Assembly: GCA_019314375.1 (NCBI GenBank)
Contig: JAFCZJ010000014.1
Coordinates: 12,153-76,152, forward strand
Source: Deltaproteobacteria bacterium
GTDB lineage: Bacteria; Myxococcota; B64-G9
Direction: 5' to 3'
DNA length: 64,000 bases
Position 1 is the first letter of the stretch; each line of letters begins with the position of its first letter. Positions 5,532 through 46,676 of this stretch are shown one piece after another. Position numbers and translations under genes: made by a program. Below the pieces are notes generated by a model. The model had not been told where the DNA came from. It saw only the letters and a program-made list of their open reading frames with translations, and ran no database searches.

Positions 5532-5732
5532 ATGGCACAGAGGAGAGGAGGTCATAACTTGGGATTTCTAAAGAATTTACTCGGCGTCGGCGAGCCGGAA
5601 CACATTCCGAACCTGGGAAGGAATGATCCCTGCTGGTGCGGAAGCGGGAAAAAGTACAAAAAATGCCATATGGAATCAGACGACAAAAAGCGTTCTAAGC
5701 TTAGGGCGAAGACATGCACTTCCGCCACCTGA
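5532..5732 (+). CDS. small SEC-C motif (zinc-binding) protein
   Basis: [16 protein letters not shown] is the SEC-C metal-binding motif. The product is 66 aa. Confidence 0.55.
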
Positions 5733-5800
5733 AGCAGCTCTCGAAGGTGAGTTTCACCTTCCGGAAATAAAGCGCCAAAGGGGGCCGACCGATCGGGTCT

Positions 5801-5833
5801 CGTGTCCACGCACAGGGTTGAGATCCCCCCAGC
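5801..5833. repeat. copy 1 of a 33-bp direct repeat (a mazF 5'-coding remnant)
   Basis: cgtgtccacgcacagggttgagatccccccagc matches 6641..6673 at 31 of 33 positions. Minus-strand translation gives (M)[15 protein letters not shown]..., compared with Maz[16 protein letters not shown]. Confidence 0.9.
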
Positions 5834-5835
5834 AC

Positions 5836-6366
5836 ATGTACGAGCCCTATTTCACTCCTTATTCATTAGGGGAGGGCTACAAGGCCGTGGAGTTGCCCTA
5901 CGCCGGCGAAGAACTCTCAATGCTGGTCCTGCTTCCCGATCCGGGCGAGTTCTACGCATTCGAGGCATCCCTGGCAGCTGAAGTCCTGAAGGAAATCGTC
6001 ACGTCCCTGGAGGAAGGCCATGTGAGAATCAGCATGCCTCGTTGGACATTCAAGTCCCCGAGCATCTCCCTCAAAAGCCTACTGTCCGGACTGGGCATGC
6101 CCGCAGCCTTTGATCCACAACAAGCCGACTTCTCCGGCATGACCGGAACAAATATTCTTTACCTCGGGGACGTACACCACAAGGCCTTCGTGACCGTTAA
6201 CGAGGTGGGCACCGAAGCTGCGGCGGCCTCGACGGCCTCGGCCTTTTACCAGAGCGGGCAACCCGAGGCCGAGATAATCACGCTGGACCGACCCTTCATC
6301 TACCTAATCAGGGATCGAAAAACCGACACCATGCTCTTTATGGGGCGGATCATGGACCCGAGCTAG
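5836..6366 (+). pseudogene. serpin 3' fragment (C-terminal ~175 aa including the reactive-centre loop; N-terminal half absent)
   Basis: YKAVELPYAGEELSMLVLLPD, ISMPRWTFKSPSISLKSLLSGLGMPAAFD, ADFSGM, HKAFVTVNEVGTEAAAAS (hinge) and LDRPFIYLIRDRKTDTMLFMGRIMDP follow the order of the serpin C-terminal half. Serpin similarity starts 2 nt after repeat copy 1. The longer track ORF (5623..) reads through the SEC-C gene and the repeat in a meaningless frame. Confidence 0.65.
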
Positions 6367-8882: not shown

Positions 8883-9926
8883 ATGAACTTCATCGACGAA
8901 GCCAAGATCGAAGTCTACTCCGGCAAGGGCGGAGATGGTTGCATCGCCTTCAGACGCGAGCGATATCTGCCCAGAGGTGGTCCCAGCGGGGGCGACGGAG
9001 GCCGAGGCGGCAGCGTGATTCTCCAGGCGGACAGCGCCCTGGGGACCTTGCTGGATCTGCAATACAGAAAAGTCTACAAGGCCAAAAATGGCCAGCCGGG
9101 CTTGGGCAAAGACAAGTATGGTGTGTCGGCGGAAGATCTGGTGGTACGAATTCCGACCGGCACCTTGATTTACGACACGGATAGCGGCGAACTTCTGGCG
9201 GACCTTGCGGAACACGAAGCCAAGCTCGTGGCCGTACGTGGAGGCCAGGGAGGACGCGGTAACATCCACTTCAAGACCTCAACCCACCAGGCACCTCGAA
9301 AGGCCGAACTTGGCGAGCCTTCAGAAGCCCGAAATCTGCGCCTGGAATTGAAACTATTGGCCGACGTCGGCGTGGTGGGATTTCCCAACGCCGGCAAATC
9401 CACGCTTGTTTCACGCCTTTCCAAAGCCAAGCCCAAGGTCGCCGATTACCCTTTCACCACCCTGGTGCCCTCCCTTGGCGTAGTCGCCGCCGGCGACATG
9501 AACAGCTTCGTCATGGCCGATGTGCCGGGGTTGATTGAAGGCGCCGCCGAGGGTCATGGCCTGGGCCATCGCTTCCTGAAACACGTGGAGCGCTGCGGCC
9601 TGCTCGTCCATCTCTTGAGTTGGCAACTTGGTGACGAGGAGGGCCACGAACCTCTACTGCAGCGCTACATAACCCTCGAACGCGAAATGCGACTTTTCGA
9701 CGAAGGTCTTGCAGAAAAACCCAGACTGGTCGCCTTGGCCAAGACGGATCTCCCGGAAAGCCGAGAACTCCTCGAGCCCTTGCGCGAAGCCTTCAAGCAG
9801 ATGGACATTGAGCTTCTTTCTTTTTCGGCAGTGAGCAACGACGGACTCAAAGAGCTGGTGGGTGCCATCTGGAAGATGCTGCAGGAATCCCGCGCCAAAG
9901 AAGAAACCCCAAAAGACGACGATTGA
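8883..9926 (+). CDS. obg: GTPase Obg/CgtA
   Basis: MNFIDEAKIEVYSGKGGDGCIAFRRE (Obg fold), GFPNAGKST (G1), DVPGLIEGA (G3) and AKTD (G4-like). The conserved rplU-rpmA-obg order is present. Confidence 0.95.
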   Translation: MNFIDEAKIEVYSGKGGDGCIAFRRERYLPRGGPSGGDGGRGGSVILQADSALGTLLDLQYRKVYKAKNGQPGLGKDKYGVSAEDLVVRIPTGTLIYDTDSGELLADLAEHEAKLVAVRGGQGGRGNIHFKTSTHQAPRKAELGEPSEARNLRLELKLLADVGVVGFPNAGKSTLVSRLSKAKPKVADYPFTTLVPSLGVVAAGDMNSFVMADVPGLIEGAAEGHGLGHRFLKHVERCGLLVHLLSWQLGDEEGHEPLLQRYITLEREMRLFDEGLAEKPRLVALAKTDLPESRELLEPLREAFKQMDIELLSFSAVSNDGLKELVGAIWKMLQESRAKEETPKDDD

Positions 9927-9929
9927 ACC

Positions 9930-10973
9930 CTACAAAGTACGGGTCACCTTGCGCAAGCCACGAGGCTTGTCCAAGGGACAGTCGCGCACATTCGCCACAT
10001 GCCGCGCCAGCAACTGACCGGGCACCGCGCAGACCAAGGGGCTCAACCATTCCGGCAGGTCTGCGGGAATTGGCATCGGGCATTGAGCCATGCGCAAAAT
10101 ACCTGCGTCATTGGAGATGGCCAGAATCTCGGCCCGCCGCTTTCTCAGTTCGCCCGCCAATTCGCGCATGTCCGCCAAAGTCTTCCCCTTGGGGGCGATG
10201 AGCAAAACAGGAAAGCCTTCACCCACCACAGCGATCGGCCCATGCCGAAAGTCAGCTGAAGAAGACGGTTCCGCTGCCAGGTAGGCCAACTCTTTCAGCT
10301 TCAAGGCCAACTCAAAAGCGGTGGCATAGTTAAAACCACGCCCAATGACGGCCATGCGATCCGCGTAACGATAGCGCGAGGCCTGGGCGGCCACAGCCTG
10401 ATTCATCTCCAATGTCTCGTCCAACAACGCGGGGACTCGCCGCAGTTCCTTCCAATCCTTGGCCGTCCCATCCAAAGCCACGCTCAGCATCGCCAAGGCC
10501 AGAAGCTCTGCCGTATAGGTCTTGGTGGCGGCCACCGATCGTTCCACGCCGGCGTGCAAAGGAAAGACCCAGCGCGCGAGTGAGGCCAATGGGCTCTTTG
10601 TGTAATTGCACAAAACCAAACTGGCAGCGCCTTGAGCCTTGGCTTCCTGCATCACGTGGCAAAGATCGTCGGACTCCCCGGACTGAGAAATGGCCAAAAC
10701 CAGCGAATCCCGCAGGTCGGGCGGTCGCCCATAAAGCGTGAACAAAGAAGGCGTGGCCAAAGACACGATGAAACGATTCCGCGCACCGAACAAATACTTG
10801 CCGTAAAGCCCGGCATTGTCGGAAGAGCCCCGAGCGACAAGAAAAATATGCTTCAGGCCGGTTTGTCGAATGGCGACCGCTAGCTTTTCAACCGGCTTGC
10901 GTTCTTTGTCAAACAGCCGCGCCAAGGTCTTGGGCTGAGATGCAATTTCCCGGTCCAGGTGGCTCATGGTCAT
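9930..10973 (-). CDS. double-SIS-domain sugar-phosphate isomerase/aminotransferase-like protein (GlmS isomerase-half-like, no glutaminase domain)
   Basis: VARGSSDNAG ... ISQSGESDD (SIS 1) and IGRGFNYATAFELALKLKE (SIS 2). I set the start at the ATG at 10973 (MTMSHLDREI), which has GGAGAGGG upstream. Confidence 0.7.
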   Translation of the reverse strand: MTMSHLDREIASQPKTLARLFDKERKPVEKLAVAIRQTGLKHIFLVARGSSDNAGLYGKYLFGARNRFIVSLATPSLFTLYGRPPDLRDSLVLAISQSGESDDLCHVMQEAKAQGAASLVLCNYTKSPLASLARWVFPLHAGVERSVAATKTYTAELLALAMLSVALDGTAKDWKELRRVPALLDETLEMNQAVAAQASRYRYADRMAVIGRGFNYATAFELALKLKELAYLAAEPSSSADFRHGPIAVVGEGFPVLLIAPKGKTLADMRELAGELRKRRAEILAISNDAGILRMAQCPMPIPADLPEWLSPLVCAVPGQLLARHVANVRDCPLDKPRGLRKVTRTL

Positions 10974-10989
10974 CAAACCCTCTCCTCGG

Positions 10990-12108
10990 TCAAGCACCAA
11001 CAGCATGGCGCAGCCTGTCACAGATGCGCTCTACTTGGGCTTCGTTCAGTTCGACATGCATGGGCAGAAAAATCCCTCGACGCCCCACCTTTTCGCTGTT
11101 GGGCAGGGCGTCCCGGCGTACACCTCGATAAGGCCCATGAAAATGCACCGGCACCACGCCTGCCTGACATTCGATGTGCCCGGCACGCATGTGTTCAATC
11201 ACCGCATCCCGCGACAGGTCTCTATCTTTCAACAAAACAACAAAAGACTGAAAAATATGCCCCGAATCCGAATCCAGCGGCAACTGCAACCAGTCCCAGT
11301 CCGCCATTCTCTCAAAATACCAAGCAGCCACCTGCCGCCTGCGGGCGAGCAGTTCGGGCAAGCGCTCCAACTGAACCCGGCCCAGGGCGGCCGCCAGTTC
11401 GCTCATGCGAAAATTGCCGCCCGGCTCCAGGGTCACGCCGTCGCCCTGTCCGTGTTGCCGCAGGGCCCTCACTCGCTGCGCCAAACCCACATCATCGGTG
11501 GTGACCATGCCGCCCTCGCCCGTGGTCATCACCTTTCGTGGATGGAAGCTGAAGCAGGCCAACAAGCCATGAGGCCGTCCCACCGCACAGCCATCCAGTC
11601 CCGCCCCCATGGCACAAGCAGCATCCTCTATCAGGTAAGCATGGGGTGCTTTCCGTGCCAAATCCTGAACAGGCGCGGCCAGGCCGTACTGGTGCACGGG
11701 CATGATCACCCGGGTTTGAGGCTCCATGACTCGCCCCAATGACTCGGGATCCAAATTGAGACTCTCGCTTTGCACATCGGCCAAAACTACCTCGGCACCA
11801 CTCAGCGCCACGGCGTTGGCTGTTGCAATGTAGGTACAAGCGGGCAAGACCACCTCGTCGCCTTTCCCCACGGACAAGGCCATCAGGGCCAGTTGCAAGG
11901 CGGCCGTACCCGACGATACGGCGATGGCGAAGGCGGACCCCACGCTGAGCGCAAAAGCTTGCTCAAAAGCCTCGCCTTCAGGCCCTTGAACCAAGCGCCC
12001 GGAACGCAAAACGCGCAGACATGCCTCTTCTTCGGCCAAGCCCAATGAAGGCATGGCCAGGCGAATCAACTCAGACTCTTGGGAATTACCAGATGCTCTC
12101 GGGCACAT
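10990..12108 (-). CDS. DegT/DnrJ/EryC1/StrS-family PLP-dependent sugar aminotransferase
   Basis: IRLAMPSLGLAEEEACLRVLRSGRLVQGPEGEAFEQAFA and CFSFHPRKVMTTGEGGMV (PLP-Lys context). The start is uncertain. The ATG at 12108 overlaps the upstream gene by 23 nt; a TTG at 12069 is an alternative. The track start at 12294 lies deep inside the OPX gene. Confidence 0.85.
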   Translation of the reverse strand: MCPRASGNSQESELIRLAMPSLGLAEEEACLRVLRSGRLVQGPEGEAFEQAFALSVGSAFAIAVSSGTAALQLALMALSVGKGDEVVLPACTYIATANAVALSGAEVVLADVQSESLNLDPESLGRVMEPQTRVIMPVHQYGLAAPVQDLARKAPHAYLIEDAACAMGAGLDGCAVGRPHGLLACFSFHPRKVMTTGEGGMVTTDDVGLAQRVRALRQHGQGDGVTLEPGGNFRMSELAAALGRVQLERLPELLARRRQVAAWYFERMADWDWLQLPLDSDSGHIFQSFVVLLKDRDLSRDAVIEHMRAGHIECQAGVVPVHFHGPYRGVRRDALPNSEKVGRRGIFLPMHVELNEAQVERICDRLRHAVGA

Positions 12109-12679
12109 AAACGATGTCACCCGGCCGCAGGAAGAAATTCTTGGCCTTGCCCTGGGCGATGGCCTCCACGGGAATGGGGTATTTTTTCTCTTCCCCTTCG
12201 ACCAAGCGCGTGACGTTGGTGTCGTTTTTTGCCGCCAGCTTGGTGAAGCCTCCCGCCATGCTGACTGCCTGAATGACAGACAGGCCGTCCTCATACTTGA
12301 AAGTCCCGGGCTTGCTCACCTGGCCAAAAATGGACACTTTCTTTGAGTTGTACTCACGGATCAAAATGCTGACCTGTGGGTTTCGTAAGTACTTCTCCCC
12401 AAGCCGGCGCTGGATTTCCTCTGCTGCGTCGGAACTGGTTAAGCCGTCCACCTCCAACTTGCCGACGAGCGGAAAGAGGATTGTCCCTGCCGAGGAAACC
12501 CGATAAATGCCGCTGAGCTCTTTTTCGTTATAGACCTTAACCTCAAACACATCACCAGAGCCCAGGGTGGAAGCGGGCACGAGGACGGGGTGCTTGACCT
12601 CGGGCGTTTGGGGCGTCTTCGCCCACCAACAGGCGGAGGGAACAAAAAACAGAAGCAGAAGGGGAATGATCTTTTTCAT
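12086..12679 (-). CDS. short outer-membrane polysaccharide export (OPX) lipoprotein: Poly_export motif plus one SLBB domain, no C-terminal OM helix
   Basis: Lipobox FFVPSAC. GDVFEVKVYNEKELSGIYRVSSAGTILFPLVGKLEVDGLTSSDAAEEIQRRL...NPQVSILI is the PES/Poly_export block. VSIFGQVSKPGTFKYEDGLSVIQAVSMAGGFT...LRPGDIVYVPE is an SLBB domain. The protein ends 5 aa later (197 aa in total). Confidence 0.8.
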   Translation of the reverse strand: MKKIIPLLLLFFVPSACWWAKTPQTPEVKHPVLVPASTLGSGDVFEVKVYNEKELSGIYRVSSAGTILFPLVGKLEVDGLTSSDAAEEIQRRLGEKYLRNPQVSILIREYNSKKVSIFGQVSKPGTFKYEDGLSVIQAVSMAGGFTKLAAKNDTNVTRLVEGEEKKYPIPVEAIAQGKAKNFFLRPGDIVYVPESIW

Positions 12680-12691
12680 GCTGAATCAATA

Positions 12692-12712
12692 CCGTGTCGC
12701 TTTGCGACACGG
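12692..12712 (-). promoter_or_regulatory. intercistronic hairpin between the beta-barrel and OPX genes
   Basis: Perfect 9-bp stem ccgtgtcgc / gcgacacgg with a 3-nt loop. On the minus strand it is followed by tattgattc, 13 nt before the OPX ATG. It could be an attenuator or an mRNA-stability element. Confidence 0.3.
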
Positions 12713-12788
12713 CATAAGAGTTTCTGCCGAGTAGCATGGGGTTGAAGTAGTTGGTTTAGATGACATGATCTTGCCTGTTTTAGAAACT

Positions 12789-14033
12789 CTAATAGTCCAA
12801 ACTCACGCGAAAACCAAAGGCGTGCTTGCTGTACTCCACGCCACCGGCTCCAGCCAAGGGCTGAGCGTAGTCGGAGAATAGGGCCTGTAGACGATAATCC
12901 AAGCCCAAAGCCAACCAGTCCAGAATGTGGTACTCGAAAGAAGCCCCACCGGTCAGCAAGAAGTCAAACCGCTCCCCCGCATCGGCCTGCACACCCGTTC
13001 CATAGTCCAGAAGGTCAAAACCCACATGGGCCGAAAGGGTGAAGCGGCCAGCCAAAAGTTGCCGATAGCGCAGGTAAAATCGGTCTTGACCAAAATATGC
13101 GTAGAGCGGGGCCGGTTGAAAATTGCGCAGGTAACCACCCTGTAAGAGCATCGTACCCACCTGGAAATTGACCTCAGCCTGGCCGATGGCCGAACGAAAA
13201 TCCGAACCCGTATAGCCAGTCGGTGCATCCAAAAGAGTATCGCCATAGCCTGCTTTGATCACCAAGGACAGAGAAGGCGAAATCTGACCGATCATGCCCG
13301 CCGTTGCCCGGATGGCGTTGATGTCGATGTTCTTGGTGCCGTTATCGTAGCCGTTGGGGTAACGCCTAATGTCGGAATCGAAATCAATTGTCACCGCGGT
13401 TTTGGGCAAAAACTTCCACTTACCGGAAAAATAGATGCGGTGGCCGTAGCTGGACAGGGCTTGGGCATTTACTCCGCTGTCATCGAACCAGTCGATGAAA
13501 AAGCCATAAGCCAGATCGAACATCAGGGCCCCGCCACCGGGCTTGAACTGGAAATGGGCCTTGGCTTCATTGTTCGTGCGATCGAAGCGACCGGAAACCG
13601 CGGAATATCGAGGATCACCACTCCTGGAAAATACGTCCTCGATAAAGAAACTAAATTGCCCATTGGGATTAAATCCCAATTTCAGATCAGCTTCACCTGC
13701 GATCGTGCTCAAATTGGTAGAATTGCTGTTCTCTACGCCGAAGTAGTAGTCGTATCCCACCTTGCTGTTCAATTCAAAGGAGACGGTGTCGGAGGGGAAT
13801 TCGAGGGTCAGGCCAGGCCTCATCTGCAAGATCAGGTCGCTGAAAGCATTGTTGCTTGAGTAACTCGGATTGGTATCAAAAACCAGGCTCAAATCGATCG
13901 AGGGGTGAAGGCGACCAGGCCCCGCCTGGATGCCATTTCCTCGCGCGTAGACCTGCTCTGCCCCTCCGATGAAGCATGCAAAAAGGAGGAGAAAGGAGAT
14001 ACCCATTGTTGCTTTGTTTGTTGTCCACACCAT
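12789..14033 (-). CDS. outer-membrane beta-barrel protein (polysaccharide-locus porin-like)
   Basis: Signal peptide ...FLLLFACFIGGAEQVYA. Alternating amphipathic strands occur throughout, with many Y/F/G/D-rich turns and a C-terminal ...FGFRVSLDY ending in an aromatic residue, as in OM barrels. It lies adjacent to the OPX gene. Confidence 0.65.
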   Translation of the reverse strand: MVWTTNKATMGISFLLLFACFIGGAEQVYARGNGIQAGPGRLHPSIDLSLVFDTNPSYSSNNAFSDLILQMRPGLTLEFPSDTVSFELNSKVGYDYYFGVENSNSTNLSTIAGEADLKLGFNPNGQFSFFIEDVFSRSGDPRYSAVSGRFDRTNNEAKAHFQFKPGGGALMFDLAYGFFIDWFDDSGVNAQALSSYGHRIYFSGKWKFLPKTAVTIDFDSDIRRYPNGYDNGTKNIDINAIRATAGMIGQISPSLSLVIKAGYGDTLLDAPTGYTGSDFRSAIGQAEVNFQVGTMLLQGGYLRNFQPAPLYAYFGQDRFYLRYRQLLAGRFTLSAHVGFDLLDYGTGVQADAGERFDFLLTGGASFEYHILDWLALGLDYRLQALFSDYAQPLAGAGGVEYSKHAFGFRVSLDY

Positions 14034-14143: not shown

Positions 14144-14722
14144 TTATTGATAAGGACTTGCCGCCGGTGGCCGAAACACGGGGGTCTCAGGCAAAGGCTG
14201 TACCGTGGGATCCAGTTCCGGCACCTTGCTCTCGTCCACCTCCACCTCCACCGTGGTTTTGCCCACCGCGAAAGCAAGTTCACCCACACACTGCTCTGCC
14301 TCGGTTTTTAGTACTTTGATTTTCTGGTGTGAGATGGCCATTTTGTGAAACTCGTGGGCCGCGGTATCTCGCTCCCCTTTGGCCACCGCTTCCTGCAAGG
14401 TGATGTCCGCTTGCTCCGAAATCCGTATCAAGCCCTTAATGTTCGTCAGCTTTTCGTTGACGCAATTGATCTTGATGACGTCTTTTTCAGCTCGCGCCTC
14501 TTTAAGCAGCCCCAATACCGTCGAAAGCACACCCCGCATCTCGCCAAGATAGGTCGAGGCGGTGCTCAATTTCTCGGAATCGGACATCTTGGTGGCGCGA
14601 TCGAAATCCACCTGGATCTTGCTTTTGGAAGCGATGTCTTCTTGCGGCATCTGGGCGATGGCCCCCAGGGAGAACAAGACCACGATCAACGCCACTGCCC
14701 ATTTCATCTTCATTCTCAACAT
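14144..14722 (-). CDS. secreted coiled-coil protein, unknown function
   Basis: Signal peptide MKWAVALIVVLFSLGAIAQ, a helical heptad-rich body and a Pro-rich C-terminus (PLPETPVFRPPAASPYQ). No motif recognised. Confidence 0.5.
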   Translation of the reverse strand: MLRMKMKWAVALIVVLFSLGAIAQMPQEDIASKSKIQVDFDRATKMSDSEKLSTASTYLGEMRGVLSTVLGLLKEARAEKDVIKINCVNEKLTNIKGLIRISEQADITLQEAVAKGERDTAAHEFHKMAISHQKIKVLKTEAEQCVGELAFAVGKTTVEVEVDESKVPELDPTVQPLPETPVFRPPAASPYQ

Positions 14723-14791: not shown

Positions 14792-17700
14792 TCACATCTC
14801 CTTACGGATTAGCAACTCAGAACTTTCGGCGATCGGCCCTTCCAGCTCGCCGTCGCTCGCCACCACAATACACTGCCAGATATCGTTTGCTTTCGTCAAG
14901 CGGGCCGGCACCCGGTCCGTACCTGGAGCAAAAGATTGCACCACGCCGTCCTTCAACCAGCGAAATCGATAACGTACCGAATCTCCATCAGGATCCTCAG
15001 CCTTCCTCATGATTTGACAGCGCAGTTCCTGATTATCCCCCGGCTTCGGTGGACCCAAATCCACCTTGGGCGCGCCTGGCTTAGCGTTGGCTACCTTGAT
15101 TTGGCTTGTTGTCACAGGACCGTTGACTTGCCCATCGTTGGCCTGCACCTCACAGGTCCAAAGCTGTCCCCGCCGAGTTCTGGAAGAAGGCAGTGTTGCC
15201 CCCACATGCTCTGCCCTTCCCTTGTCCTCACCCTTGAACCAGGAAAAAGAATGCCGCAACACATCCCCGTCCGGATCCGGTGTTGACTGCAAAAGCCGAC
15301 AATGCAAGTCATCTGAAGACAAGGGCTTCTTGGGGAAAATCCCGACTGAAACCCGCCCTGGAGGCGAATTGCCCACGACGGCCTTGGCCGTGACGGGCAC
15401 CGAAGACTGTGAACCATCTGAAGCCATCACCGTGACCTGCCATTGCTGCCCTTTGCGCAAAAGACCAGCAGGAAGTTGGTTCAACCCGGTGCCGGACGCC
15501 AAGCCCCGGCCGTCGACCAGCCAATTCACATCAAGCGTCAAAGGATCTCCGTCCGGATCGCGGCTTACGACATCCATCACCAGACTGAGTCTATCCCCAA
15601 CCTTGGGCTTGGCAGGCTCTATCCGAATGCTTGGCGACGTGGGTGGCAGGTTGCCGATGAGGACCCGCGCGCTACAGGTCGGGCCCCGAAGCTCTCCATC
15701 GTCGGCCTCGGCCACCACCTGCCAGCTTTGCCCACGCTTCACGTGTTTGCCATGCAATCGGCCATCGGAAAGCTTGGGCCTGGGGGCACCATCCAAAAAC
15801 CACATGTAATGCATGCGCAACTTGTCACCGTCCGGGTCCCGCACCGCCTCTGCCAACTTCACCTGCAACGATTGTCCGGTCTTGGGCTTGACCGGCTCCA
15901 AAGAAACACGACATTTCCCTGGCGGACTGTTTCGCACCAGGAAAGACAAGGTCAAAGCCGGCGCCGAAAGCTGTCCGTCGGTGGCGATGATCTGGACTTC
16001 GTAAAGCCCATGCTTGGTCGTTTTGGCGGCGGGTAAAACGAACAAATTTTTTCCCTCAGCGACAAGACGCCCCTTCTGACTCCAACGCACGTTACACCAA
16101 GTCGCGTCCCCATCCGGGTCCACCGGGGCCTTTAGCACCTTGAGGACCAGGGGCTCGGTCGTGACCGGCCTGGCTTGAACGTGTTCGAGACGGGGAGCGA
16201 CGGGTGCGCTGTTGACGATGCTCACCTCGGCCCGGGCCTCGGGACCAGATGCCTCATCGTCCGCGGCCAAAACCACAGCTTCCCATCGTTGACCTTTCCT
16301 GGTCTTCGCCGAAGACATTCTCTCGCCAGCAAACCCCGCGCCCTTCATTTCCTTTCCGTCTTTCCGCCAGCTGACCTGATAACGAAGCGCATCAGAGTCC
16401 GGATCACGGGCAGGATCGAGTATTTGTACCCTCAGGTCCTGCCTGGTTGTGGGCTTTAGAGGGACGATGCGAATCTTCGGTGCGGTCGGAGGCGTGTTGA
16501 CTATGGTGATGCCACCGCGAACCGACTTTCCTTCTTCGGAGCCATCGATCGACACCACATCGACTTCGATTTTCCCATTCTTTTTTCCAAACGACGCCGG
16601 AAGAAAAGAAGCGCTGCGGGGCACATCAAGGGGGACTCCATCCAAGCGCCAATCAAATCGATACGAGACCCGGTCTCCATCTGCGTCTCTCCCCGGCCTA
16701 TCCACTTGCACTTTGATCTGATCGGTGACCCTGGGCCGTTTTGGTCGAAGACTGACGGCCGCCGCATCGGGGGGGGTGTTGGAAATCGTCGTGCTCACCC
16801 GTGCCGCGGCACCGGAAACCTCGCCGTCATTTGGCGTCACCACAACCGTCCAGCGCTCACCCTTGCGGGTTCGTTTGGCCGAAATCTTGTCTCCGCGCAA
16901 ACCCTTCTGAATACGCCTGTCCTTCAGCCACGCGTATCGATAGCGAATGCGATCTCCATCGGGGTCGGCTGATTCTTGCTGGATGCGTACTTTCAGATCA
17001 TCTCGCGTGCGTACTGGATTCGGCACCAGGCTTATCGTCGGCGCAACCGGCGGGGTGTTTTGCACCCGCAACTCTCCACTACGGAACTCCGGCCCGTTCG
17101 GGGAGGGAAGCAAGCCAAAGCGCCAGCGTTCTCCTTTGCGGGTTTTCCCCGCCGGCAATTCCCTGGCCCCCAAGTGCTCTTTGGCCTGCTTGCCATTCCG
17201 ATACCAACGAATAATGGTCTCGGGCTCAGAATCGCCATCCATATCGAAAAACCGATAGTCGAGGCGAAGGATATCCGTGGTGCTGGGGTTCTCGGGCTCC
17301 AGCTTCAAGTCCACATAACGTGGCGGATTGGAAAAAACGCGGCCCCCATGCGCTGCGCCGCCTCCCGGGCTCGGCCAAACCAAACCCAAACTCCGCTTGC
17401 CCTTGCGCAGCATCCTGAAAACCGACACTTGCCCGTCCCGACCCACGGCCACCAACTCCCCCAAGCCATCCCCGCTCAGGTCGGCCATCAGAGGTGCCAC
17501 GTCCACCCTGTCGGCAAACCTGGCCGGGAACCCAGGATACGCTCGGCCATTGGCCCGCACGACAGCCAAGCCTTTGCGTTCAGTGCCCACGGCGATCTCA
17601 AGCTTGCCGTCTGAGTCCAAATCGCCGACGACCGGAGCGCTACGCAGACGCCGGTCCAACTTCACCGGAAAGCCCTTGCGAAGTTTTCCCTTTCCGTCGA

Positions 17701-18601
17701 TCACATACAGCTTGCCGTCGCCGGAGGAGGCGACGATCTCCACTACGCCATCACCATCAAAATCAGCCAGCGCGGAGGCCGAATAGATAGTATCGAAAGG
17801 AAAACCTGAACAGGCTGAGCCATCTGCCTTGATTGCGTGGATCTTGAAATCCTTGGAGCCGACCACGATCTCGAAACGCCCATCATCGTCCAAGTCCCCC
17901 AGGATCGGCTGACCCACCATCGCAAACTTGGCCTTGTATGGAAAACCTGCCAGTGGCTTGCCCGCCGCAGTCAAAGCATGCATGCGGCCCTGATCGTCCC
18001 CCAGCAACAAAACAGGAGGCTCCCCTGGAGCCAATCTCGACCAGGTCATCGATGTAGCCGGTGTCCCATCAATTTTCATCGACCATCCAGGCAGTCGCCG
18101 GCCCTGTTCATCCAGCGCGATAATATCGCCAGAAGCCAACGAAGCCAGAATCACCCTTTTGCCCCCAGCATGCACTTCGGCAAAAATTGGAGCCCCAAGG
18201 ATCTTGCAGGAAAGCGCCTTGGGAAAGGGCGGCAATGCTCGACCATTCAGCTCAAGCACATACAAGGTGCCGTCTTCGGAACCGAAAGCAATCAGGAGAT
18301 CACCCTGCTCATCAAACCGGCCCAGGGTCAAAGGAGTCGAAACCACGATCTCCTTGCCCAAATCCACCGGATAGCCCGCGACAGGGCTCCCGTCGATCTC
18401 AAGTCCGTGGATCTGATTGCGGCTGGCCAGCAACAACTCCAGGCGACCGTCTCCATCCAAATCGACAGCCAGGGGCGAGGCCACATCAACCGTCCCCTCG
18501 AGCTGTACCGGAAAACCACGCAAACGGGTGGCCCCCATGGATTCAATAGAGAAGCCCAACAAAATCCAACTTGCAAAGATAAACCAAAGGACCCTGCGCA
18601 T
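14792..18601 (-). CDS. 1269-aa secreted protein: N-terminal FG-GAP/VCBS-type beta-propeller plus nine tandem ~94-aa DPDGD-containing Ig/cadherin-like modules
   Basis: Signal peptide MRRVLWFIFASWILLGFSIESMG. There are about 7-8 blade-like units, each with a G[FY]P motif and a D-x-D-x-DG loop followed by hydrophobic strands (DLDGDGRLELLLAS, GDLDDDGRFEIVVGS, ADFDGDGVVEIVASS, GDLDSDGKLEIAVGT, ADLSGDGLGELVAV). Nine modules follow, delimited by N[TS]PP and sharing DPDGD..[RL].Y.[YF].W...G......L......K.G..W.V.V...DG. Confidence 0.75.
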   Translation of the reverse strand: MRRVLWFIFASWILLGFSIESMGATRLRGFPVQLEGTVDVASPLAVDLDGDGRLELLLASRNQIHGLEIDGSPVAGYPVDLGKEIVVSTPLTLGRFDEQGDLLIAFGSEDGTLYVLELNGRALPPFPKALSCKILGAPIFAEVHAGGKRVILASLASGDIIALDEQGRRLPGWSMKIDGTPATSMTWSRLAPGEPPVLLLGDDQGRMHALTAAGKPLAGFPYKAKFAMVGQPILGDLDDDGRFEIVVGSKDFKIHAIKADGSACSGFPFDTIYSASALADFDGDGVVEIVASSGDGKLYVIDGKGKLRKGFPVKLDRRLRSAPVVGDLDSDGKLEIAVGTERKGLAVVRANGRAYPGFPARFADRVDVAPLMADLSGDGLGELVAVGRDGQVSVFRMLRKGKRSLGLVWPSPGGGAAHGGRVFSNPPRYVDLKLEPENPSTTDILRLDYRFFDMDGDSEPETIIRWYRNGKQAKEHLGARELPAGKTRKGERWRFGLLPSPNGPEFRSGELRVQNTPPVAPTISLVPNPVRTRDDLKVRIQQESADPDGDRIRYRYAWLKDRRIQKGLRGDKISAKRTRKGERWTVVVTPNDGEVSGAAARVSTTISNTPPDAAAVSLRPKRPRVTDQIKVQVDRPGRDADGDRVSYRFDWRLDGVPLDVPRSASFLPASFGKKNGKIEVDVVSIDGSEEGKSVRGGITIVNTPPTAPKIRIVPLKPTTRQDLRVQILDPARDPDSDALRYQVSWRKDGKEMKGAGFAGERMSSAKTRKGQRWEAVVLAADDEASGPEARAEVSIVNSAPVAPRLEHVQARPVTTEPLVLKVLKAPVDPDGDATWCNVRWSQKGRLVAEGKNLFVLPAAKTTKHGLYEVQIIATDGQLSAPALTLSFLVRNSPPGKCRVSLEPVKPKTGQSLQVKLAEAVRDPDGDKLRMHYMWFLDGAPRPKLSDGRLHGKHVKRGQSWQVVAEADDGELRGPTCSARVLIGNLPPTSPSIRIEPAKPKVGDRLSLVMDVVSRDPDGDPLTLDVNWLVDGRGLASGTGLNQLPAGLLRKGQQWQVTVMASDGSQSSVPVTAKAVVGNSPPGRVSVGIFPKKPLSSDDLHCRLLQSTPDPDGDVLRHSFSWFKGEDKGRAEHVGATLPSSRTRRGQLWTCEVQANDGQVNGPVTTSQIKVANAKPGAPKVDLGPPKPGDNQELRCQIMRKAEDPDGDSVRYRFRWLKDGVVQSFAPGTDRVPARLTKANDIWQCIVVASDGELEGPIAESSELLIRKEM
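14795..17332 (-). repeat. nine in-frame tandem coding repeats (~280 nt each) in the FG-GAP protein
   Basis: The repeats are diverged at DNA level. The protein-level periodicity is clear: boundaries ...NPPRYV, NTPPVAP, NTPPDAA, NTPPTAP, NSAPVAP, NSPPGKC, NLPPTSP, NSPPGRV, NAKPGAP. Confidence 0.75.
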
Positions 18602-18669: not shown

Positions 18670-19146
18670 TCACATCTTGTCGGTCAGTTTCTCATTCGTC
18701 TCACGAAGACGAATGCTCAACACGCGGGCGATGTTGATCACCACCAGGGTAAAACCATTTTTGTAGACTCTTGCGAAAGAATGCAGGTTCTCGTTGGTCA
18801 AGCAGAGCATGTCGACCTTGGTTTTGACCCTGATGGAAGCGGATCGAAACTCCTTGTCGATCAAAGCCATCTCACCAAAAAAATCCTTGGCCTTCAATAC
18901 CGCAATGATGTGCTCTGACCCATCCTCGCGCCTGCGCACGACTTCCACCGAACCGGCCAGCAGGAGGAAAAGGCTGTCGCCCACATCCCCCTGCTCAAAA
19001 ACCATCTCGCCAGGATCAAAGGATCGAAACTGGGTCAGTTCCGCGAGCATCTCGACTTCCTCGGGAAGCAGTCCCGCAAACAAACTGGAGGTTTGGAGAA
19101 CTTCGGTCTTGTTCATCTCGTCACCTCTCACTGTGGAATCCTTCAT
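18670..19146 (-). CDS. stand-alone cyclic-nucleotide-binding (CAP effector-domain) protein
   Basis: FEQGDVGDSLFLLLAGSVEVV ... FFGEMALID...RSASIRV is the cNMP-binding cassette. The product is 158 aa with no HTH or other output domain. Its start overlaps the upstream stop (ATGA). Confidence 0.8.
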   Translation of the reverse strand: MKDSTVRGDEMNKTEVLQTSSLFAGLLPEEVEMLAELTQFRSFDPGEMVFEQGDVGDSLFLLLAGSVEVVRRREDGSEHIIAVLKAKDFFGEMALIDKEFRSASIRVKTKVDMLCLTNENLHSFARVYKNGFTLVVINIARVLSIRLRETNEKLTDKM

Positions 19147-20147
19147 GATCCGGATCCCACGAAAAACTCGTCAATTCGAGGATCGTCTTCGTCCGAGCGA
19201 AGGCTCTCCGGCGGCAAGGGTTCGATGAACTCCACTCCTCGCTGCCGCTTGACCATGTACAAAAATTTGGCCTTGAGATCGATATTGTAGCCTTCCGGGT
19301 GATCGGCCAAGGACATACAGTAGGCCTCTTTGTTGCTTTCCCTTCGCGGCCAGTACAAAAACTCCTCGCCCACCAAGCAGCCACACAAACCCGCTGCCTG
19401 CTGCCGATGTTTCTTAATCTTCCCTTTGAGTTCTTCCGACAAGGATCTGGCCTCGTCTGCTTCGCCGCTTACTGCAGCCGATGCCTGTTTCTGCTCTTCT
19501 GCCTGCTCAAACAGATACTCAGCCCGCCTTCTGGCTCGCCGGCTCTTCGCTCGGCGCTCAGCAACAGACAGATTGGAGGCCATGGATCGAGCCCAGAGCT
19601 GCTCCACTTCTTCCCAAAGCCGCATCTTGCGCTCATTCTCCCGCTCGTAGTTGGACTGAGCTTCCCGAAACGCCCGATCCATATCGCCCAAATCCTTCTG
19701 CCGGCGCTTGATCTGCGGCAAGGGATCCACGGTCTTCTCTTTGTTGTCGCCCTGCTTCTCTTTCTTCCTTAACTCATCGATCACGGACTGCTGGGTCAAC
19801 AGGCGATGCTCTAAGGCACCCATGCGATTGAATATGTCGCTGACGGTGATTCGCTGGTTTTCAAAACTCGCTACGGCTTCATAAGAACGATTCTCGATCT
19901 CGGAGACCTCCGCCAACAATTGAGCCGCCATATCCTCGAGTTCACCGGCCCTGTAGAGTGTGTCTATGGCCTGCTTCTGGGTCTGCTCTGAGCGATATTT
20001 CATCAAGCTCACTTGGGCCAGCATTTCTTCAAGCCTCTCCAATGCCTGCACCAACCGAGCCTCGTAATCAGCCAACTCGACAAACCAAGCATTGAAATCA
20101 TCCTGTTCGAGGAAGGCCTGAACTTCTCGCAGCCATAGGGCCTTCAT
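19143..20147 (-). CDS. cytoplasmic coiled-coil protein, unknown function
   Basis: Long heptad-rich Glu/Arg/Gln sequence with no signal peptide. The start is set at the ATG at 20147 (MKALWLREVQ), which has GAGGAG 7 nt upstream. The track start at 20186 lacks an SD. Confidence 0.5.
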   Translation of the reverse strand: MKALWLREVQAFLEQDDFNAWFVELADYEARLVQALERLEEMLAQVSLMKYRSEQTQKQAIDTLYRAGELEDMAAQLLAEVSEIENRSYEAVASFENQRITVSDIFNRMGALEHRLLTQQSVIDELRKKEKQGDNKEKTVDPLPQIKRRQKDLGDMDRAFREAQSNYERENERKMRLWEEVEQLWARSMASNLSVAERRAKSRRARRRAEYLFEQAEEQKQASAAVSGEADEARSLSEELKGKIKKHRQQAAGLCGCLVGEEFLYWPRRESNKEAYCMSLADHPEGYNIDLKAKFLYMVKRQRGVEFIEPLPPESLRSDEDDPRIDEFFVGSGS

Positions 20148-20219
20148 GCCAATCTCCTCTTCAAAAACCGGGAACCAAATCCCCATCCCGGTCAGCTAAC
20201 AAGTCATGTTGAGTTTGGA

Positions 20220-21593
20220 TCATCCCCCAGGGGCCAGGATGAAGGGATAGACAACCGCCGTCTCTCCCCCGTCGGCGGGAGGGAATCGGATGGCGCGAAC
20301 CCGTGCTTTGATGCAAGAGGCCAATTCGGGATCGCCGGTGGTGTTCTCCACAATCTCCACCTCGATGATCTTGCCTCCGGGGTGGATCACAAAACGAATG
20401 ACGACCTTGCCTTTGAGCTCTGGGTTGCGCTTGAGACGCTTTTCATAACAATGCTTGATGCCACCCAGCCTTCGGCGTATCACTTTTTTAATGTCCGACT
20501 GGGATCGGGAATCGGAATCAAACTCCTCCAAGGCCGCTGAACTCACCTTGGCGACGATTCGTGCTTCGGCCTTTTTGGGGCCTCCGCGTCCAGCCCCACC
20601 AACCACACCCTTGGTGCCCAGATCCTTGATGTTGGCCGCGGAGGCCGCACCATCAACACCACGGGAACCCTTTTGCCCCGCAGCCGTGGCCACATCCAAA
20701 CCACCACCGATACCATCGAATGCGCCGGCACCATCGCCACCGACAGTTCCCTCGGCAAAAACATCGGCTACCGCGCCGCCCATGGCCATGCCGGAGTCCC
20801 CCTTGGCCCCCAGCAACTTAAGCAATCCCCGGCCGGTCACTTTCTTTTCCATGGCCACGGTTCGTGCCTTGGCGACTGCCGCCGAATCCCCTTCATCGCC
20901 CCCATCATCGCCCGTGTCCTCTACTTCTTCCTTCTTATTCTTCTTGGGTTCGGGTGCCTTCTCTGCTTCGCCGGCCCCATCTCCGTCTTCGTCTTCGCTC
21001 TTTTCCTTGTCCGGCATAATCATCTTGGCGAAACGATCAGGGATGTCCTCAAGGGACACCTCTCTTTCCACGATGGGAATCTGTTTCGCCCAAATTATCA
21101 TCACCAACATCGCGATGGACACAAAGCTGAAGACGGATGTGTAGGGCCAGTCGATATTCCGGGACCAATAGCCCTTGACCTCTGCCGGCAATTGGGGCTT
21201 GACCGGCTCGGGAGGAGGGCTCACGAATTGGAACAGGATGATGCACTCGCCCATGGAAACACGCCCGCGAGATCCCTCGTTCAATTTCAAGTGGTAGGTG
21301 TCACCTGATTTTCGCACCAAATTCTGGGCCTTCAGTGATTGTAGATCAGCCGCCTGGTCCGCCACCGAGACCCGACCCGACATCTTGTCCGTGAAGGCCA
21401 AATGGTAATCCGTGCCACGCATTTCAAAAAGGCTAAAGGTCTTGGGCACATCGGCTGCCGGCAGCACAATGGTGTTGCGCACGCCGGAGCCCACCGTCAC
21501 GCTGCCGCGCTTCCGGACGAGTTTCTCCTCGATGATCTTGCCACCCTGAATGACGCCGATTCTGAGAATCTTAGGTCTCGAGGCTTCCGTCAT
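20220..21593 (-). CDS. bitopic protein with a TonB-C-like (AgmX/GltG-type) C-terminal domain
   Basis: N-terminal ~125-aa cytoplasmic beta-rich domain (FHA-like by eye: VTVGSGVRNTIVLPAADV...YHLAFTDKMSGRVSV). One TM segment (TSVFSFVSIAMLVMIIWA). An acidic then Gly/Ala-rich linker. The C-terminal block IKKVIRRRLGGIKHCYEKRLKRNPELKGKVVIRFVIHPGGKIIEVEIVENTTGDPELASCIKARVRAIRFPP resembles TonB_C / AgmX-type domains. Confidence 0.6.
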   Translation of the reverse strand: MTEASRPKILRIGVIQGGKIIEEKLVRKRGSVTVGSGVRNTIVLPAADVPKTFSLFEMRGTDYHLAFTDKMSGRVSVADQAADLQSLKAQNLVRKSGDTYHLKLNEGSRGRVSMGECIILFQFVSPPPEPVKPQLPAEVKGYWSRNIDWPYTSVFSFVSIAMLVMIIWAKQIPIVEREVSLEDIPDRFAKMIMPDKEKSEDEDGDGAGEAEKAPEPKKNKKEEVEDTGDDGGDEGDSAAVAKARTVAMEKKVTGRGLLKLLGAKGDSGMAMGGAVADVFAEGTVGGDGAGAFDGIGGGLDVATAAGQKGSRGVDGAASAANIKDLGTKGVVGGAGRGGPKKAEARIVAKVSSAALEEFDSDSRSQSDIKKVIRRRLGGIKHCYEKRLKRNPELKGKVVIRFVIHPGGKIIEVEIVENTTGDPELASCIKARVRAIRFPPADGGETAVVYPFILAPGG

Positions 21594-21644: not shown

Positions 21645-22181
21645 TCAACCGGTCTCTTTTTTCAATACGGCAAACTTATACGAGGCATATTCGGCCTGCC
21701 CCGCCGAATACAAAACCTCGGTCAACAATCGAAAGGGAATGCGTTTGTCCGCGATGAGAGTCAGCAGGCCCTTGAACTGCAATTCCTTCTTGTTCTTGTT
21801 GTACTTCGCGATGAGTTTCTTCTTTTCGCGCTGATTGACCAGGGCATCCCTCAAGGGCACGATCAGCAAGGAAGCAGGATTGTTGCCCTTCTTATAAGAG
21901 GCCTCCACCCGGCCATTCTTTACGCGCGCAACCACTTTGTTTTCCACCAGAATCACCTTGCTGGTGATGGCGACCTGAATGGCGGCCTCCTTGGGGATGA
22001 TTCGAGTTTCCGAGCGAGGCAAAGACGTATCCCGGGTGGGTTGGATCACAATCGGATCGACTGAAAAATTCTTAAGCAAGTACAGAATCAAAGCCGTAAA
22101 AAGACCCATGATGGGAATCATGTCCAGCTCAGGGACAGCATCTTCACCCCTGCCGGAAGCTCTGCGACGAGAAAGTCTCAT
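21645..22181 (-). CDS. ExbD/TolR-family motor stator subunit (paralogue 2; AglQ/AglS-like)
   Basis: PELDMIPIMGLFTALILYLL is the ExbD/TolR N-terminal TM region, followed by a periplasmic domain. Its start overlaps the upstream paralogue's stop (ATGA, 22178..22181). Confidence 0.75.
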   Translation of the reverse strand: MRLSRRRASGRGEDAVPELDMIPIMGLFTALILYLLKNFSVDPIVIQPTRDTSLPRSETRIIPKEAAIQVAITSKVILVENKVVARVKNGRVEASYKKGNNPASLLIVPLRDALVNQREKKKLIAKYNKNKKELQFKGLLTLIADKRIPFRLLTEVLYSAGQAEYASYKFAVLKKETG

Positions 22182-22771
22182 GAGATCTCCGGACTAAGAA
22201 TCACATCGAAGAACAAGGACTTCGTTCCACTCTGACGCGTGGCATCCATCACATTGACCAGAATCTCATATGGAACATCGGGCTGGGCATAGATGATGAT
22301 CTTGCTCTCCTTGGGAAACTCCTGCTTGATCCGCAACATTTCTTTGGTCAAGCGCTTGTAATCGTAACAATGGGCTGGCGGTGGGATATTCTTGGCCATA
22401 GCGTCTCGACAGGTCGGATCGCGAAGAAGCAAGGGAAGGGTGGGCTTCTTGGCCTCTTCTTCTCCCTCGCTCGTCACGTTGCCCATCACTCCGCCCACAC
22501 CCGCGATGAACAAGCCTTCGTAGGTGATACCCACCGTAAGATTCAGCTTCTTTTCAGGCTCTTTGTCGTCATCTTGCTGGGCCCCGCCTGCATCCAGGGG
22601 ATCGGCATAGCGCGGCGCGTTGACATTGATTACGCCGATTTGGGCCAAACCCGTGGTGCTCACCATGATGAAAAGCATGATGGAGGTGACGATATCCAGG
22701 TAGGGCGTGATATTAAGCCCAATGGGTTCCTGGTACGATTTGGACCTTTGCGATGGCTTCCGGCCTCTCAT
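22178..22771 (-). CDS. ExbD/TolR-family motor stator subunit (paralogue 1; AglQ/AglS-like)
   Basis: LNITPYLDIVTSIMLFIMV carries the conserved TM aspartate context of ExbD/TolR. It has an acidic insertion (QQDDDKEPEKK). Confidence 0.75.
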   Translation of the reverse strand: MRGRKPSQRSKSYQEPIGLNITPYLDIVTSIMLFIMVSTTGLAQIGVINVNAPRYADPLDAGGAQQDDDKEPEKKLNLTVGITYEGLFIAGVGGVMGNVTSEGEEEAKKPTLPLLLRDPTCRDAMAKNIPPPAHCYDYKRLTKEMLRIKQEFPKESKIIIYAQPDVPYEILVNVMDATRQSGTKSLFFDVILSPEIS

Positions 22772-23644: not shown

Positions 23645-23899
23645 CTAAAAGGGACCCGTTCGAGTGGCTTCTTCAATTTTGGGCACCAATTTCTCTTTCA
23701 ATCGCAAACCTTCAAAATTCAAATTCGATCGGGGCAGAAGATACCACACCTCTGGCTTCTGGATTTTTCCCTCCACCCGTGTAACTTCCTGAATGACCAC
23801 TTGACGGATAGCCCGCTTCTTCTTGGCGACCACGACTGGTGCTATCAATAGCAACAGCCCGATCCAAAAACAAATCCATCGCCAAGTTCCGACTTTCAT
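23645..23899 (-). CDS. 84-aa single-TM protein (positionally GltF-like)
   Basis: TM segment WRWICFWIGLLLLIAPVVVA followed by KKKR. There is no motif. The call rests only on size and position between the TPR genes and the motor. Confidence 0.4.
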   Translation of the reverse strand: MKVGTWRWICFWIGLLLLIAPVVVAKKKRAIRQVVIQEVTRVEGKIQKPEVWYLLPRSNLNFEGLRLKEKLVPKIEEATRTGPF

Positions 23900-31293: not shown

Positions 31294-31376
31294 GCCCCGC
31301 GCATCAAGCGGCGTCCGCCATAAGCAATGGTTTCCCGGCCCAGGCAGGCAGGGTCCGTGGCTGGCAGGGGCCAGAA

Positions 31377-32144: not shown

Positions 32145-32249
32145 GTTTCCTCCGCAACAGGAACCCGACCATCGCCAGCTTCCCCCCGGGGACAACTTGT
32201 CCGGGTAAGCTCTTGCCGAAGCAACTCCGCTCACAATCTCGGCTCCTGT

Positions 32250-46616: not shown

Positions 46617-46649
46617 GGCGTGGAACTGAATGGTTCCACGCCTTTTTTT
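46617..46649 (+). terminator. Rho-independent terminator
   Basis: 10-bp stem ggcgtggaac / gttccacgcc, a 6-nt loop, and 7 T (46643..46649). Confidence 0.75.
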
Positions 46650-46676
46650 AACTCTTTGTCTTTAAGGAGATCCTCC

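Follow-up and report, generated by a model that had tools for sequence, protein, structure and literature searches.

Gene content of the locus

The window analysed here, the whole stretch of 64,000 nucleotides (64 kb) taken from contig JAFCZJ010000014.1, carries on its minus strand, from position 33491 down to 9930, a single co-directional gene row in which a 197 aa outer-membrane polysaccharide export (OPX) lipoprotein and a 414 aa outer membrane (OM) beta-barrel are encoded next to each other. The source organism belongs to an uncultured Myxococcota lineage of marine sediment, cold-seep, vent and brine metagenomes, and a search of sequencing runs returned matches only in DNA metagenomes of these kinds (marine sediment, cold seep, vent, brine). 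An earlier note, prepared from the sequence without database searches, had singled out four genes at the end of this row, encoding the barrel, the OPX protein, a DegT-family aminotransferase and a double-SIS protein. All four lie at the positions that it gave, on the minus strand, and their co-direction with the mglBA and motor genes is borne out, since MglB, MglA, the TPR proteins, MotA/ExbB, two ExbD proteins and a TonB_C protein are encoded on the same strand. The genes are spaced by -59 to +170 nt, the sole wider gap (343 nt) containing a small conserved open reading frame (ORF). Judged by Pfam matches and N-termini, the row encodes cytoplasmic, inner-membrane and periplasmic proteins, and the WzpB-like barrel is the only integral OM barrel among its products. 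The three genes on which the analysis centres are:

14144-14722, minus strand: u192, a conserved secreted protein (homologue search, alignment, AlphaFold 2 (AF2) model)
12789-14033, minus strand: 18-stranded OM beta-barrel, WzpB-like porin, 414 aa (AF2 model, Pfam BBP2_2, family profile)
12086-12679, minus strand: Class-3 OPX lipoprotein, candidate WzaB orthologue, 197 aa (Pfam, PDB 9N9A, alignment)

The OPX protein and the barrel resemble WzaB and WzpB of Myxococcus xanthus

The OPX protein had been described in the earlier note as truncated, and Pfam analysis agrees: a Poly_export domain (aa 37-107; 75.5 bits) is followed by SLBB_2 (aa 113-192; 49.2 bits), which leaves no space for a Wza_C helix within the 197 residues. 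The protein matched PDB entry 9N9A, the crystal structure of M. xanthus WzaB in its soluble form (sWzaB), with 194 bits (E 2.3e-56) and 57.6% identity, compared with 66 bits for Escherichia coli Wza and 31 bits for PslD. WzaB (MXAN_1915) serves the biosurfactant polysaccharide (BPS) pathway as its Class-3 OPX protein (PMC12819527). An identity as WzaX/EpsY was considered and rejected, as the corresponding NCBIfam model yielded 84 bits against a cut-off of 320; none of the OPX, barrel, DegT and SIS proteins in fact obtained an above-threshold name from NCBIfam. In a rough neighbour-joining tree, M. xanthus WzaB nests within the clade of OPX proteins that are linked to clusters of the type described in the next section. 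On sequence grounds, the window protein is thus a truncated, Class-3 type OPX protein, closest to M. xanthus WzaB among those compared (9N9A, Wza, PslD and EpsY/WzaX).

WzaB has been reported to need its acylated N-terminal Cys for OM tethering and oligomerisation, to bind the porin WzpB through its C-terminal Phe203-Phe204, and to bind the polysaccharide co-polymerase (PCP) WzcB through Arg106-Arg107 in the alpha1-beta5 loop (PMC12819527). The corresponding positions of the window protein were inspected in an alignment of 15 homologues. Its hydrophobic leader ends in ...VPSAC, with Cys17, the predicted lipidation site, being invariant, while its C-terminus reads ...PESIW and all 15 homologues terminate in IW, FF, LF or MF. 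Where WzaB has YVRRPQV the window protein has YLRNPQV, and only the first Arg of this motif is conserved across the family.

The barrel possesses a signal peptide, terminates in ...SLDY, with a C-terminal Tyr, and narrowly exceeds the cut-off of the Pfam family BBP2_2 (25.4 bits against 23.7). Structural modelling of this protein had been proposed in the earlier note, and the AF2 model, built from a 73-sequence alignment (pLDDT 92.5, pTM 0.85), contains 18 strands, the count reported for WzpX/S/B; an OmpA-like barrel of the GltA/B type was rejected on the basis of this model. Foldseek placed the 18-strand porins OccK/OpdK and AlgE as best matches (TM-score ~0.5), returned only generic barrels of 16 to 22 strands and did not list PgaA among its top 50; this supports the strand count and no specific family. 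A sequence search of the PDB with the barrel found no relative. The barrel gene lies 109 nt from the OPX gene, and the profile of its family matches the barrels encoded beside Hyalangium orthologues of WzaB (83-84% identical to WzaB) with E about 1e-119, the window barrel itself being 30-32% identical to these Hyalangium barrels and about 30% identical to the WzpB-type barrels of Myxococcaceae. A nearly invariant N-terminal periplasmic motif, GIxxGxGRLHP, precedes the first strand (residues 34-43) and could be a site at which another protein docks, one candidate being the TonB_C-like domain in the GltG-like protein described below.

Taken together, these data identify the OPX protein and the barrel, with high confidence, as orthologous to WzaB and WzpB of M. 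xanthus.

The pair closes a Glt-like gene cluster of the M. xanthus G4 type

Upstream of the pair and of u192, the row encodes the following proteins, given from mglB onwards:

33009-33491, minus strand: MglB (Pfam Robl_LC7; NCBIfam MglB, 92 bits)
32405-32992, minus strand: MglA (Pfam Arf)
31377-32234, minus strand: u285, a conserved secreted protein (recurs between mglA and the GltC-like gene)
28951-31380, minus strand: GltC-like TPR protein, 809 aa (Pfam TPR; size match to MXAN_1923)
25614-29009, minus strand: GltD-like TPR protein, 1131 aa (Pfam TPR; size match to MXAN_1922)
23955-25604, minus strand: GltE-like TPR protein, 549 aa, with lipobox LFASC (Pfam TPR, NCBIfam gliding_GltE)
23645-23899, minus strand: GltF-like small secreted protein, 84 aa (tblastn conservation, 41 loci)
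22850-23611, minus strand: MotA/ExbB protein (Pfam)
22178-22771, minus strand: ExbD protein (Pfam)
21645-22181, minus strand: ExbD protein (Pfam)
20220-21593, minus strand: GltG-like protein, 457 aa (NCBIfam, transmembrane segment, Luciano 2011 Table S3)

A paralogous cluster termed G4 has been described in M. xanthus by Luciano et al. 2011, comprising MXAN_1919 (447 aa), MXAN_1920 (91 aa), MXAN_1921 (490 aa, TPR), MXAN_1922 (1111 aa, TPR) and MXAN_1923 (809 aa); the same report lists mglA as MXAN_1925 and mglB as MXAN_1926. As wzpB is MXAN_1916 and wzaB is MXAN_1915, the locus tags (1926/1925, 1923-1919, 1916/1915) place mglBA, G4 and the BPS exporter consecutively on the M. xanthus chromosome. 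The GltC-, GltD-, GltE-, GltF- and GltG-like genes of the window follow the same order as G4, with products of 809, 1131, 549, 84 and 457 aa. By gene order and protein size, the whole row is therefore the orthologue of M. xanthus mglBA-G4-wzpB-wzaB, a correspondence that had escaped the earlier note, and the arrangement is consequently ancestral and not peculiar to this genome.

The individual Glt-like assignments are consistent with this correspondence. The GltG-like protein scored 163 bits with NCBIfam gliding_GltG (cut-off 650) and 99.9 bits with myxo_SS_tail (cut-off 40); it has a cytoplasmic N-terminus devoid of an FHA domain, a transmembrane segment at residues 149-167 and a periplasmic TonB_C / AgmX-PglI C-terminal domain. 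The GltE-like protein reached 66 bits with gliding_GltE, which is below the threshold. Such scores beneath the equivalog cut-offs are to be expected, since these proteins are paralogues of the modelled ones. The 84 aa GltF-like ORF, which the earlier note did not list, has a signal peptide and lies between the GltE-like and the GltG-like gene in every one of the 41 loci where it was seen.

Directly after this ORF, and before the GltG-like gene, the window carries the genes of a TolQ/TolR-type motor, AglRQS-like by Pfam, made up of one MotA_ExbB and two ExbD proteins. This in-row motor was found only in the clade of the window and in two Polyangia loci, and is absent from the Myxococcaceae and Anaeromyxobacter versions of the row. 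The connection with mglBA is likewise restricted: the order mglB-mglA-u285-GltC-like occurs in 11 metagenome loci anchored on MglA and is lacking in 34 others whose downstream sequence extends over at least 2 kb, so that this junction is lineage-specific, and the idea that mglBA is generally followed by G4 was rejected on the same counts. Between mglA and the GltC-like gene, u285 is present in all 11 loci at 49-61% identity and has no family match; its translation probably begins at an internal Met, residue 31.

Pfam analysis detected no OmpA-like (GltA/GltB), autotransporter-like or GltI/GltJ-like protein in the row or in the rest of the window, the GltJ model matching only the shared C-terminal domain. 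As OM proteins of the GltA/B/H/K type are missing, the row should not be filed as a gliding machine proper.

The exporter is a conserved fixture of the cluster across the Myxococcota

To establish how widespread this arrangement is, an OPX alignment was used to scan one genome per species of the GTDB; the best 80 loci, all of them from Myxococcota, were retained and searched by tblastn with the window proteins, the 71 loci in which the sequence upstream of the OPX gene reached 3.5 kb or more being considered informative. The co-occurrence of the pair with the motor cluster, which the earlier note had left to be checked, is pronounced: 65 of the 71 informative loci show the order Glt-like genes, u192 (180-190 aa), barrel, OPX. 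A further one, from Hyalangium versicolor, has the u192-barrel-OPX trio with no Glt-like genes in view, and in the remaining five the OPX gene stands alone. In 72 of 77 loci, a barrel gene adjoins the Class-3 OPX gene. Hyalangium and a metagenome-assembled genome (MAG) of the Myxococcaceae encode OPX proteins that are 83-84% identical to WzaB, and G4-like genes lie upstream in two of these three loci; the same gene order was observed in Anaeromyxobacter oryzae, in a Polyangiaceae MAG and on two other metagenome contigs. On one metagenome contig, represented by two of the loci (L087 and L089), the row is complete from mglB to OPX but lacks the motor. In Vulgatibacter incomptus, mglB and mglA are followed by a 184 aa protein, the barrel and the OPX gene, the 184 aa protein being a weak relative of u192 (E 1e-4), and no Glt-like genes intervene.

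The place of the u192, barrel and OPX trio at the 3' end of a G4-type cluster that follows mglBA is ancestral, and the cluster has kept a TolQR-type motor of its own in the lineage of the window. In sum, the barrel models neither as an unrelated porin nor as an OmpA-like protein, the OPX protein has the PES and SLBB folds, and the pair does co-occur with the genes of the motor cluster, all of which supports the checkable parts of the earlier note's interpretation, with motor coupling as a proposal drawn from synteny.

Such conservation might reflect inherited gene order alone, with the pair acting as a WzaB/WzpB-type translocon for a Wzx/Wzy pathway encoded far away, and some unrelated task falling to the Glt-like complex. 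We regard this as a real, if lesser, possibility, to which both the Vulgatibacter trio, devoid of Glt-like genes between it and mglBA, and the ability of the OPX gene to move into synthesis clusters (see below) lend weight. Yet the order has been kept from the Myxococcaceae to the Polyangia and deep uncultured lineages, even as barrel identity falls to 24-30% and the flanking genes change completely; moreover, the accessory genes of the row vary while the order GltG-like-u192-barrel-OPX remains constant, and there is no other OM barrel in the row.

The third member of the trio, u192, is encoded in 71 of the 77 loci, always immediately upstream of the barrel gene. We retrieved 392 homologues, all annotated as hypothetical and none with a Pfam domain. 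The protein has a signal peptide, two invariant Cys residues (C87 and C145) and an invariant Pro-rich C-terminal tail, DPT...RPPxxSP, in the alignment. Its AF2 model (pLDDT 83.9) is a bundle of three long helices, the helices themselves being modelled at pLDDT >95, and Foldseek matched it only to designed helical bundles (best E 0.04), with no structural relative among the hits. On account of its constant position before the barrel, u192 may be viewed, speculatively, as a candidate for an additional translocon component or for an adaptor to the Glt-like complex.

Another explanation would have the trio form the OM module of the Glt-like machine itself, in the place of GltA/B/H/K, with a cargo other than polysaccharide, such as a surface protein. 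The missing GltA/B/H/K-type OM proteins, the lack of any known relative of u192 and the proposal in the literature that the Agl-Glt core complex is sufficient for protein secretion would all suit this explanation. It is nevertheless highly improbable, as the M. xanthus orthologues have been established genetically and biochemically as the BPS exporter and bind the PCP WzcB, and as sister OPX proteins are found in sugar-polymer synthesis clusters.

Synthesis genes are usually missing beside the exporter

Pfam scans of the 64 kb, covering the remaining ORFs of at least 150 aa, bear out the earlier observation that no Wzx, Wzy, Wzz/GNVR (PCP), Bac_transf or glycosyltransferase is encoded in it; hence no complete Wzx/Wzy locus (flippase, polymerase, PCP and priming transferase) lies within the window. 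The situation in M. xanthus is comparable: Islam et al. 2020 described wzaB as 'orphan-like', 1.016 Mbp away from wzcB, wzxB and wzyB, and a wzaB mutant phenocopies other mutants of the BPS pathway. Missing synthesis genes are the usual state for the WzaB orthogroup.

A minority of orthologues have a different context. In two loci, L058 and L054, a gene for a Wzy_C-TPR protein comes after the OPX gene, in surroundings that encode GT4 and GT2 glycosyltransferases, a PglF-like dehydratase, DegT, a PglD-like acetyltransferase, an epimerase and a UDP-sugar dehydrogenase, together with a PCP-2A protein (Wzz, GNVR, kinase domain). A contiguous arrangement of OPX and synthesis genes was also reported by Islam et al. 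2020 in Sandaracinus. These clusters, combined with the M. xanthus BPS pathway, indicate that the orthogroup serves Wzx/Wzy pathways for polymers of amino sugars and uronic acids. In L054, a 276 aa protein of the Phenol_MetA_deg family, a smaller OM barrel family, is encoded directly upstream of the OPX gene (9128-9958, plus strand).

Downstream and accessory genes

The genes that follow the OPX gene, and those between the GltG-like and u192 genes, are as follows:

19143-20186, minus strand: coiled-coil protein, 347 aa, no signal peptide (Pfam, NCBIfam)
18670-19146, minus strand: cNMP-binding protein, 158 aa, no signal peptide (Pfam, NCBIfam)
14792-18601, minus strand: secreted FG-GAP protein, 1269 aa (Pfam, tblastn, signal peptide)
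10990-12069, minus strand: DegT/DnrJ/EryC1-family sugar aminotransferase (Pfam, NCBIfam, start-codon analysis)
9930-10973, minus strand: double-SIS protein (Pfam SIS x2, NCBIfam); a convergent obg comes next

The DegT protein scored 318 bits with Pfam, its best NCBIfam models being PseC (253 bits) and ArnB (218 bits), both under their cut-offs. The overlap of its gene with the OPX gene, reported in the earlier note, did not hold up: an overlap of 209 nt exists only in the longest ORF (to 12294) and is an artefact of ORF calling. Family alignments begin at residue 75-87 of that ORF, whose first 60 residues, rich in R/P/S/W, come from reading through the OPX frame. Translation probably starts at a TTG at 12069, 16 nt past the OPX stop, which yields a canonical DegT N-terminus. 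The double-SIS protein, probably starting at 10973 or 10967, has two Pfam SIS stretches (121.6 bits) and sub-threshold NCBIfam matches to GlmS (235 bits) and NagB-II (221 bits). Its sequence resembles the isomerase half of GlmS or the glucosamine-6-phosphate deaminase NagB-II, enzymes that link fructose-6-P and GlcN-6-P.

Both genes had been counted as part of the export unit, a view that our survey does not favor. By tblastn, DegT is present in nine loci of the close clade of the window and SIS in most of that clade, and neither was found elsewhere; they are clade-restricted and were rejected as core components. This distribution also bears on the original proposal that DegT and SIS help to make the polymer that the unit exports, and that this is a gliding slime or resembles a spore coat instead of being BPS-like. 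The position of DegT and the GlmS-like SIS directly downstream of the exporter in the window's clade would fit that proposal, as would the fact that the M. xanthus slime polymer is uncharacterised. We nonetheless consider it improbable, because DegT is missing even from several loci within the clade, the OPX protein groups with WzaB and scores a mere 84 bits with the EpsY/WzaX model, the row has none of the OM proteins that belong to the gliding machine proper, and the organism, found in marine sediment, seep and vent metagenomes, is without any record of motility or sporulation.

The remaining accessory genes are variable. The 1269 aa FG-GAP protein, which consists of an N-terminal beta-propeller and about nine tandem repeats of ~95 aa with DPDGD motifs, is encoded in rows of the window's clade and of the Anaeromyxobacter type and is absent from rows of the Myxococcaceae type. 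The coiled-coil and cNMP-binding proteins recur in many related loci, not in all (tblastn), and may be cytoplasmic regulators or partners on the MglA side. The 347 aa coiled-coil protein has weak SMC/Rad50-like matches and sits, together with the stand-alone cNMP-binding protein, inside a row of envelope proteins.

Elsewhere in the window, two tandem OM barrels of the FadL/TodX family are encoded at 46620-49675 (plus strand) and a tandem pair of ~1090 aa proteins made of HYDIN/ASH-type Ig repeats at 51310-57833 (minus strand). An ORF at 5623-6366 (plus strand) matches only the C-terminal half of serpins (profile positions 193-370), and is either truncated or starts further upstream in a different frame; a full-length serpin is encoded near the Vulgatibacter locus (L003).

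Proposed function of the row

The explanation that best accounts for these observations, and which we consider probable as a whole, is that the pair represents the OM end of a Wzx/Wzy-dependent pathway with its synthesis genes at another site of the genome, and that this exporter has become fixed at the end of a G4-type cluster. By analogy with what has been shown for the M. xanthus orthologues, the OPX protein would be lipidated at Cys17, tethered beneath the OM and assembled into a short, ungated periplasmic ring. Its C-terminal Ile-Trp (Phe-Phe in WzaB) would dock on the turns that the 18-strand barrel, as the actual pore, exposes to the periplasm, and its alpha1-beta5 loop would take the polymer from the inner-membrane PCP (Wzc). 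The exported material is probably BPS-like, an acidic polymer of amino sugars.

The Glt-like complex, the motor and MglBA might then act on the exporter or on its polymer, to position, energise or haul it, much as the Agl-Nfs machinery does with the Exo/MASC polymer. One argument for such a coupling is that the row supplies cytoplasmic, inner-membrane and periplasmic parts and no OM barrel other than that of the exporter. As the proposal that the Glt-like complex works on the exporter or its polymer draws on synteny, we advance it tentatively, with doubt and belief close to balance and doubt slightly ahead. A bolder version, in which mglBA, G4, u192, WzpB and WzaB constitute a single polarity-controlled, proton-motor-driven machine that secretes, gates or deploys a surface polysaccharide, with u192 as a third component of the translocon, seems to us unlikely, albeit worth stating. 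If there were indeed one machine, the original job of the Agl-Glt 'core complex' may have been the handling of polysaccharides, with gliding (Glt) and the winding of the spore coat (Nfs) as later specialisations. What the core complex originally did was still described as unknown in a 2020 preprint from the field.

Several observations weigh against the functional coupling or against parts of the assignment. In M. xanthus, a polar insertion in MXAN_1922, the gltD homologue of G4, left gliding and twitching at wild-type level, on hard and soft agar alike, unlike deletion of wzaB or wzpB, which causes a severe swarm defect. As these phenotypes differ, G4 is dispensable for BPS export under those conditions, and wzpB/wzaB there probably have their own promoter; the normal motility of this mutant also speaks for inherited gene order as the explanation of the linkage. 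Wartel et al. further stated that Agl-Glt/Nfs systems neither synthesise nor export their sugars. At the level of sequence, the window OPX protein keeps one of the two arginines of the PCP-binding motif of WzaB, and the candidate orthology of the barrel to WzpB (MXAN_1916) is drawn from synteny via Hyalangium. Five OPX genes of the same orthogroup lie in synthesis clusters with no barrel, u192 or Glt-like genes within 10 kb. The PCP, Wzx and Wzy of the organism were not seen in the 64-kb window of this one contig, and a scan for promoters and terminators produced no more hits than were obtained in shuffled sequence. Finally, our search of the literature found no experiment that links G4 to WzaB/WzpB. 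Nor did we find a paper that connects them, the OPX papers of 2022, the WzaB structure paper of 2026 and the BPS preprint of September 2026 included; coverage was incomplete, and a mention in a 2015 review on the evolution of capsules and motility is possible.

The pair and the cluster are thus orthologues of genes already described, and the link between them, for which we found no published precedent, is the new element. G4, which has had no function assigned since 2011, and the 'orphan-like' BPS exporter genes wzaB and wzpB turn out to be neighbours, and across most Myxococcota the exporter and u192 have been kept at the end of a G4-type cluster, to which some lineages add a motor of their own and a position following mglBA. 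This provides a testable hypothesis, in an existing model organism, for the role of G4 and for the purpose of the ancestral Agl-Glt core complex.

Comparison with known systems

The closest counterpart of the window pair is the BPS translocon WzaB/WzpB of M. xanthus. Both have a lipobox Cys, a PES domain, a single SLBB domain, no OM helix, a hydrophobic C-terminal dipeptide and an adjacent 18-strand barrel, and both are separated from Wzx/Wzy/PCP genes; by locus tags, the M. xanthus genes also lie beside G4 and mglBA. They differ in the C-terminal dipeptide (Phe-Phe in M. xanthus, Ile-Trp in the window) and in the PCP-contact motif (R-R against R-N), and the DegT and SIS genes that come after the OPX gene are a feature of the window locus. 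The G4 cluster shares with the window the order and sizes of its GltC-, GltD-, GltE-, GltF- and GltG-like proteins, with mglBA upstream and barrel/OPX downstream. In contrast to G4, the window row has a MotA-ExbD-ExbD motor between its gltF-like and gltG-like genes, whereas the spare motor M2 of M. xanthus (MXAN_3003-3005) is encoded elsewhere, and it contains the additional coiled-coil, cNMP-binding and 1269 aa FG-GAP proteins.

A functional parallel is offered by the Agl-Nfs and Exo systems of M. xanthus sporulation, in which a Glt-paralogous complex with a TolQR-type motor acts on the major spore coat (MASC) polymer, exported via a Class-3 OPX protein and a barrel (ExoA/WzaS and ExoB/WzpS). 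There, nfs and exo are separate loci whose cooperation has been shown experimentally, whereas in the window the exporter is physically joined to the Glt-like row and cooperation is suggested by synteny. Furthermore, Nfs includes GltA/B/H-like OM proteins, which the window row does not have. More distantly, the Class-1 OPX protein Wza of E. coli has the PES and SLBB folds in common with the window protein (66 bits), but differs in having further domains and a Tyr-ring gate and in forming an alpha-helical OM pore of its own. The polysaccharide porin AlgE, an 18-strand barrel with a TM-score of ~0.49 to the model of the window barrel, shares with it, as do the OccK porins, the general fold only, at about 10% identity.

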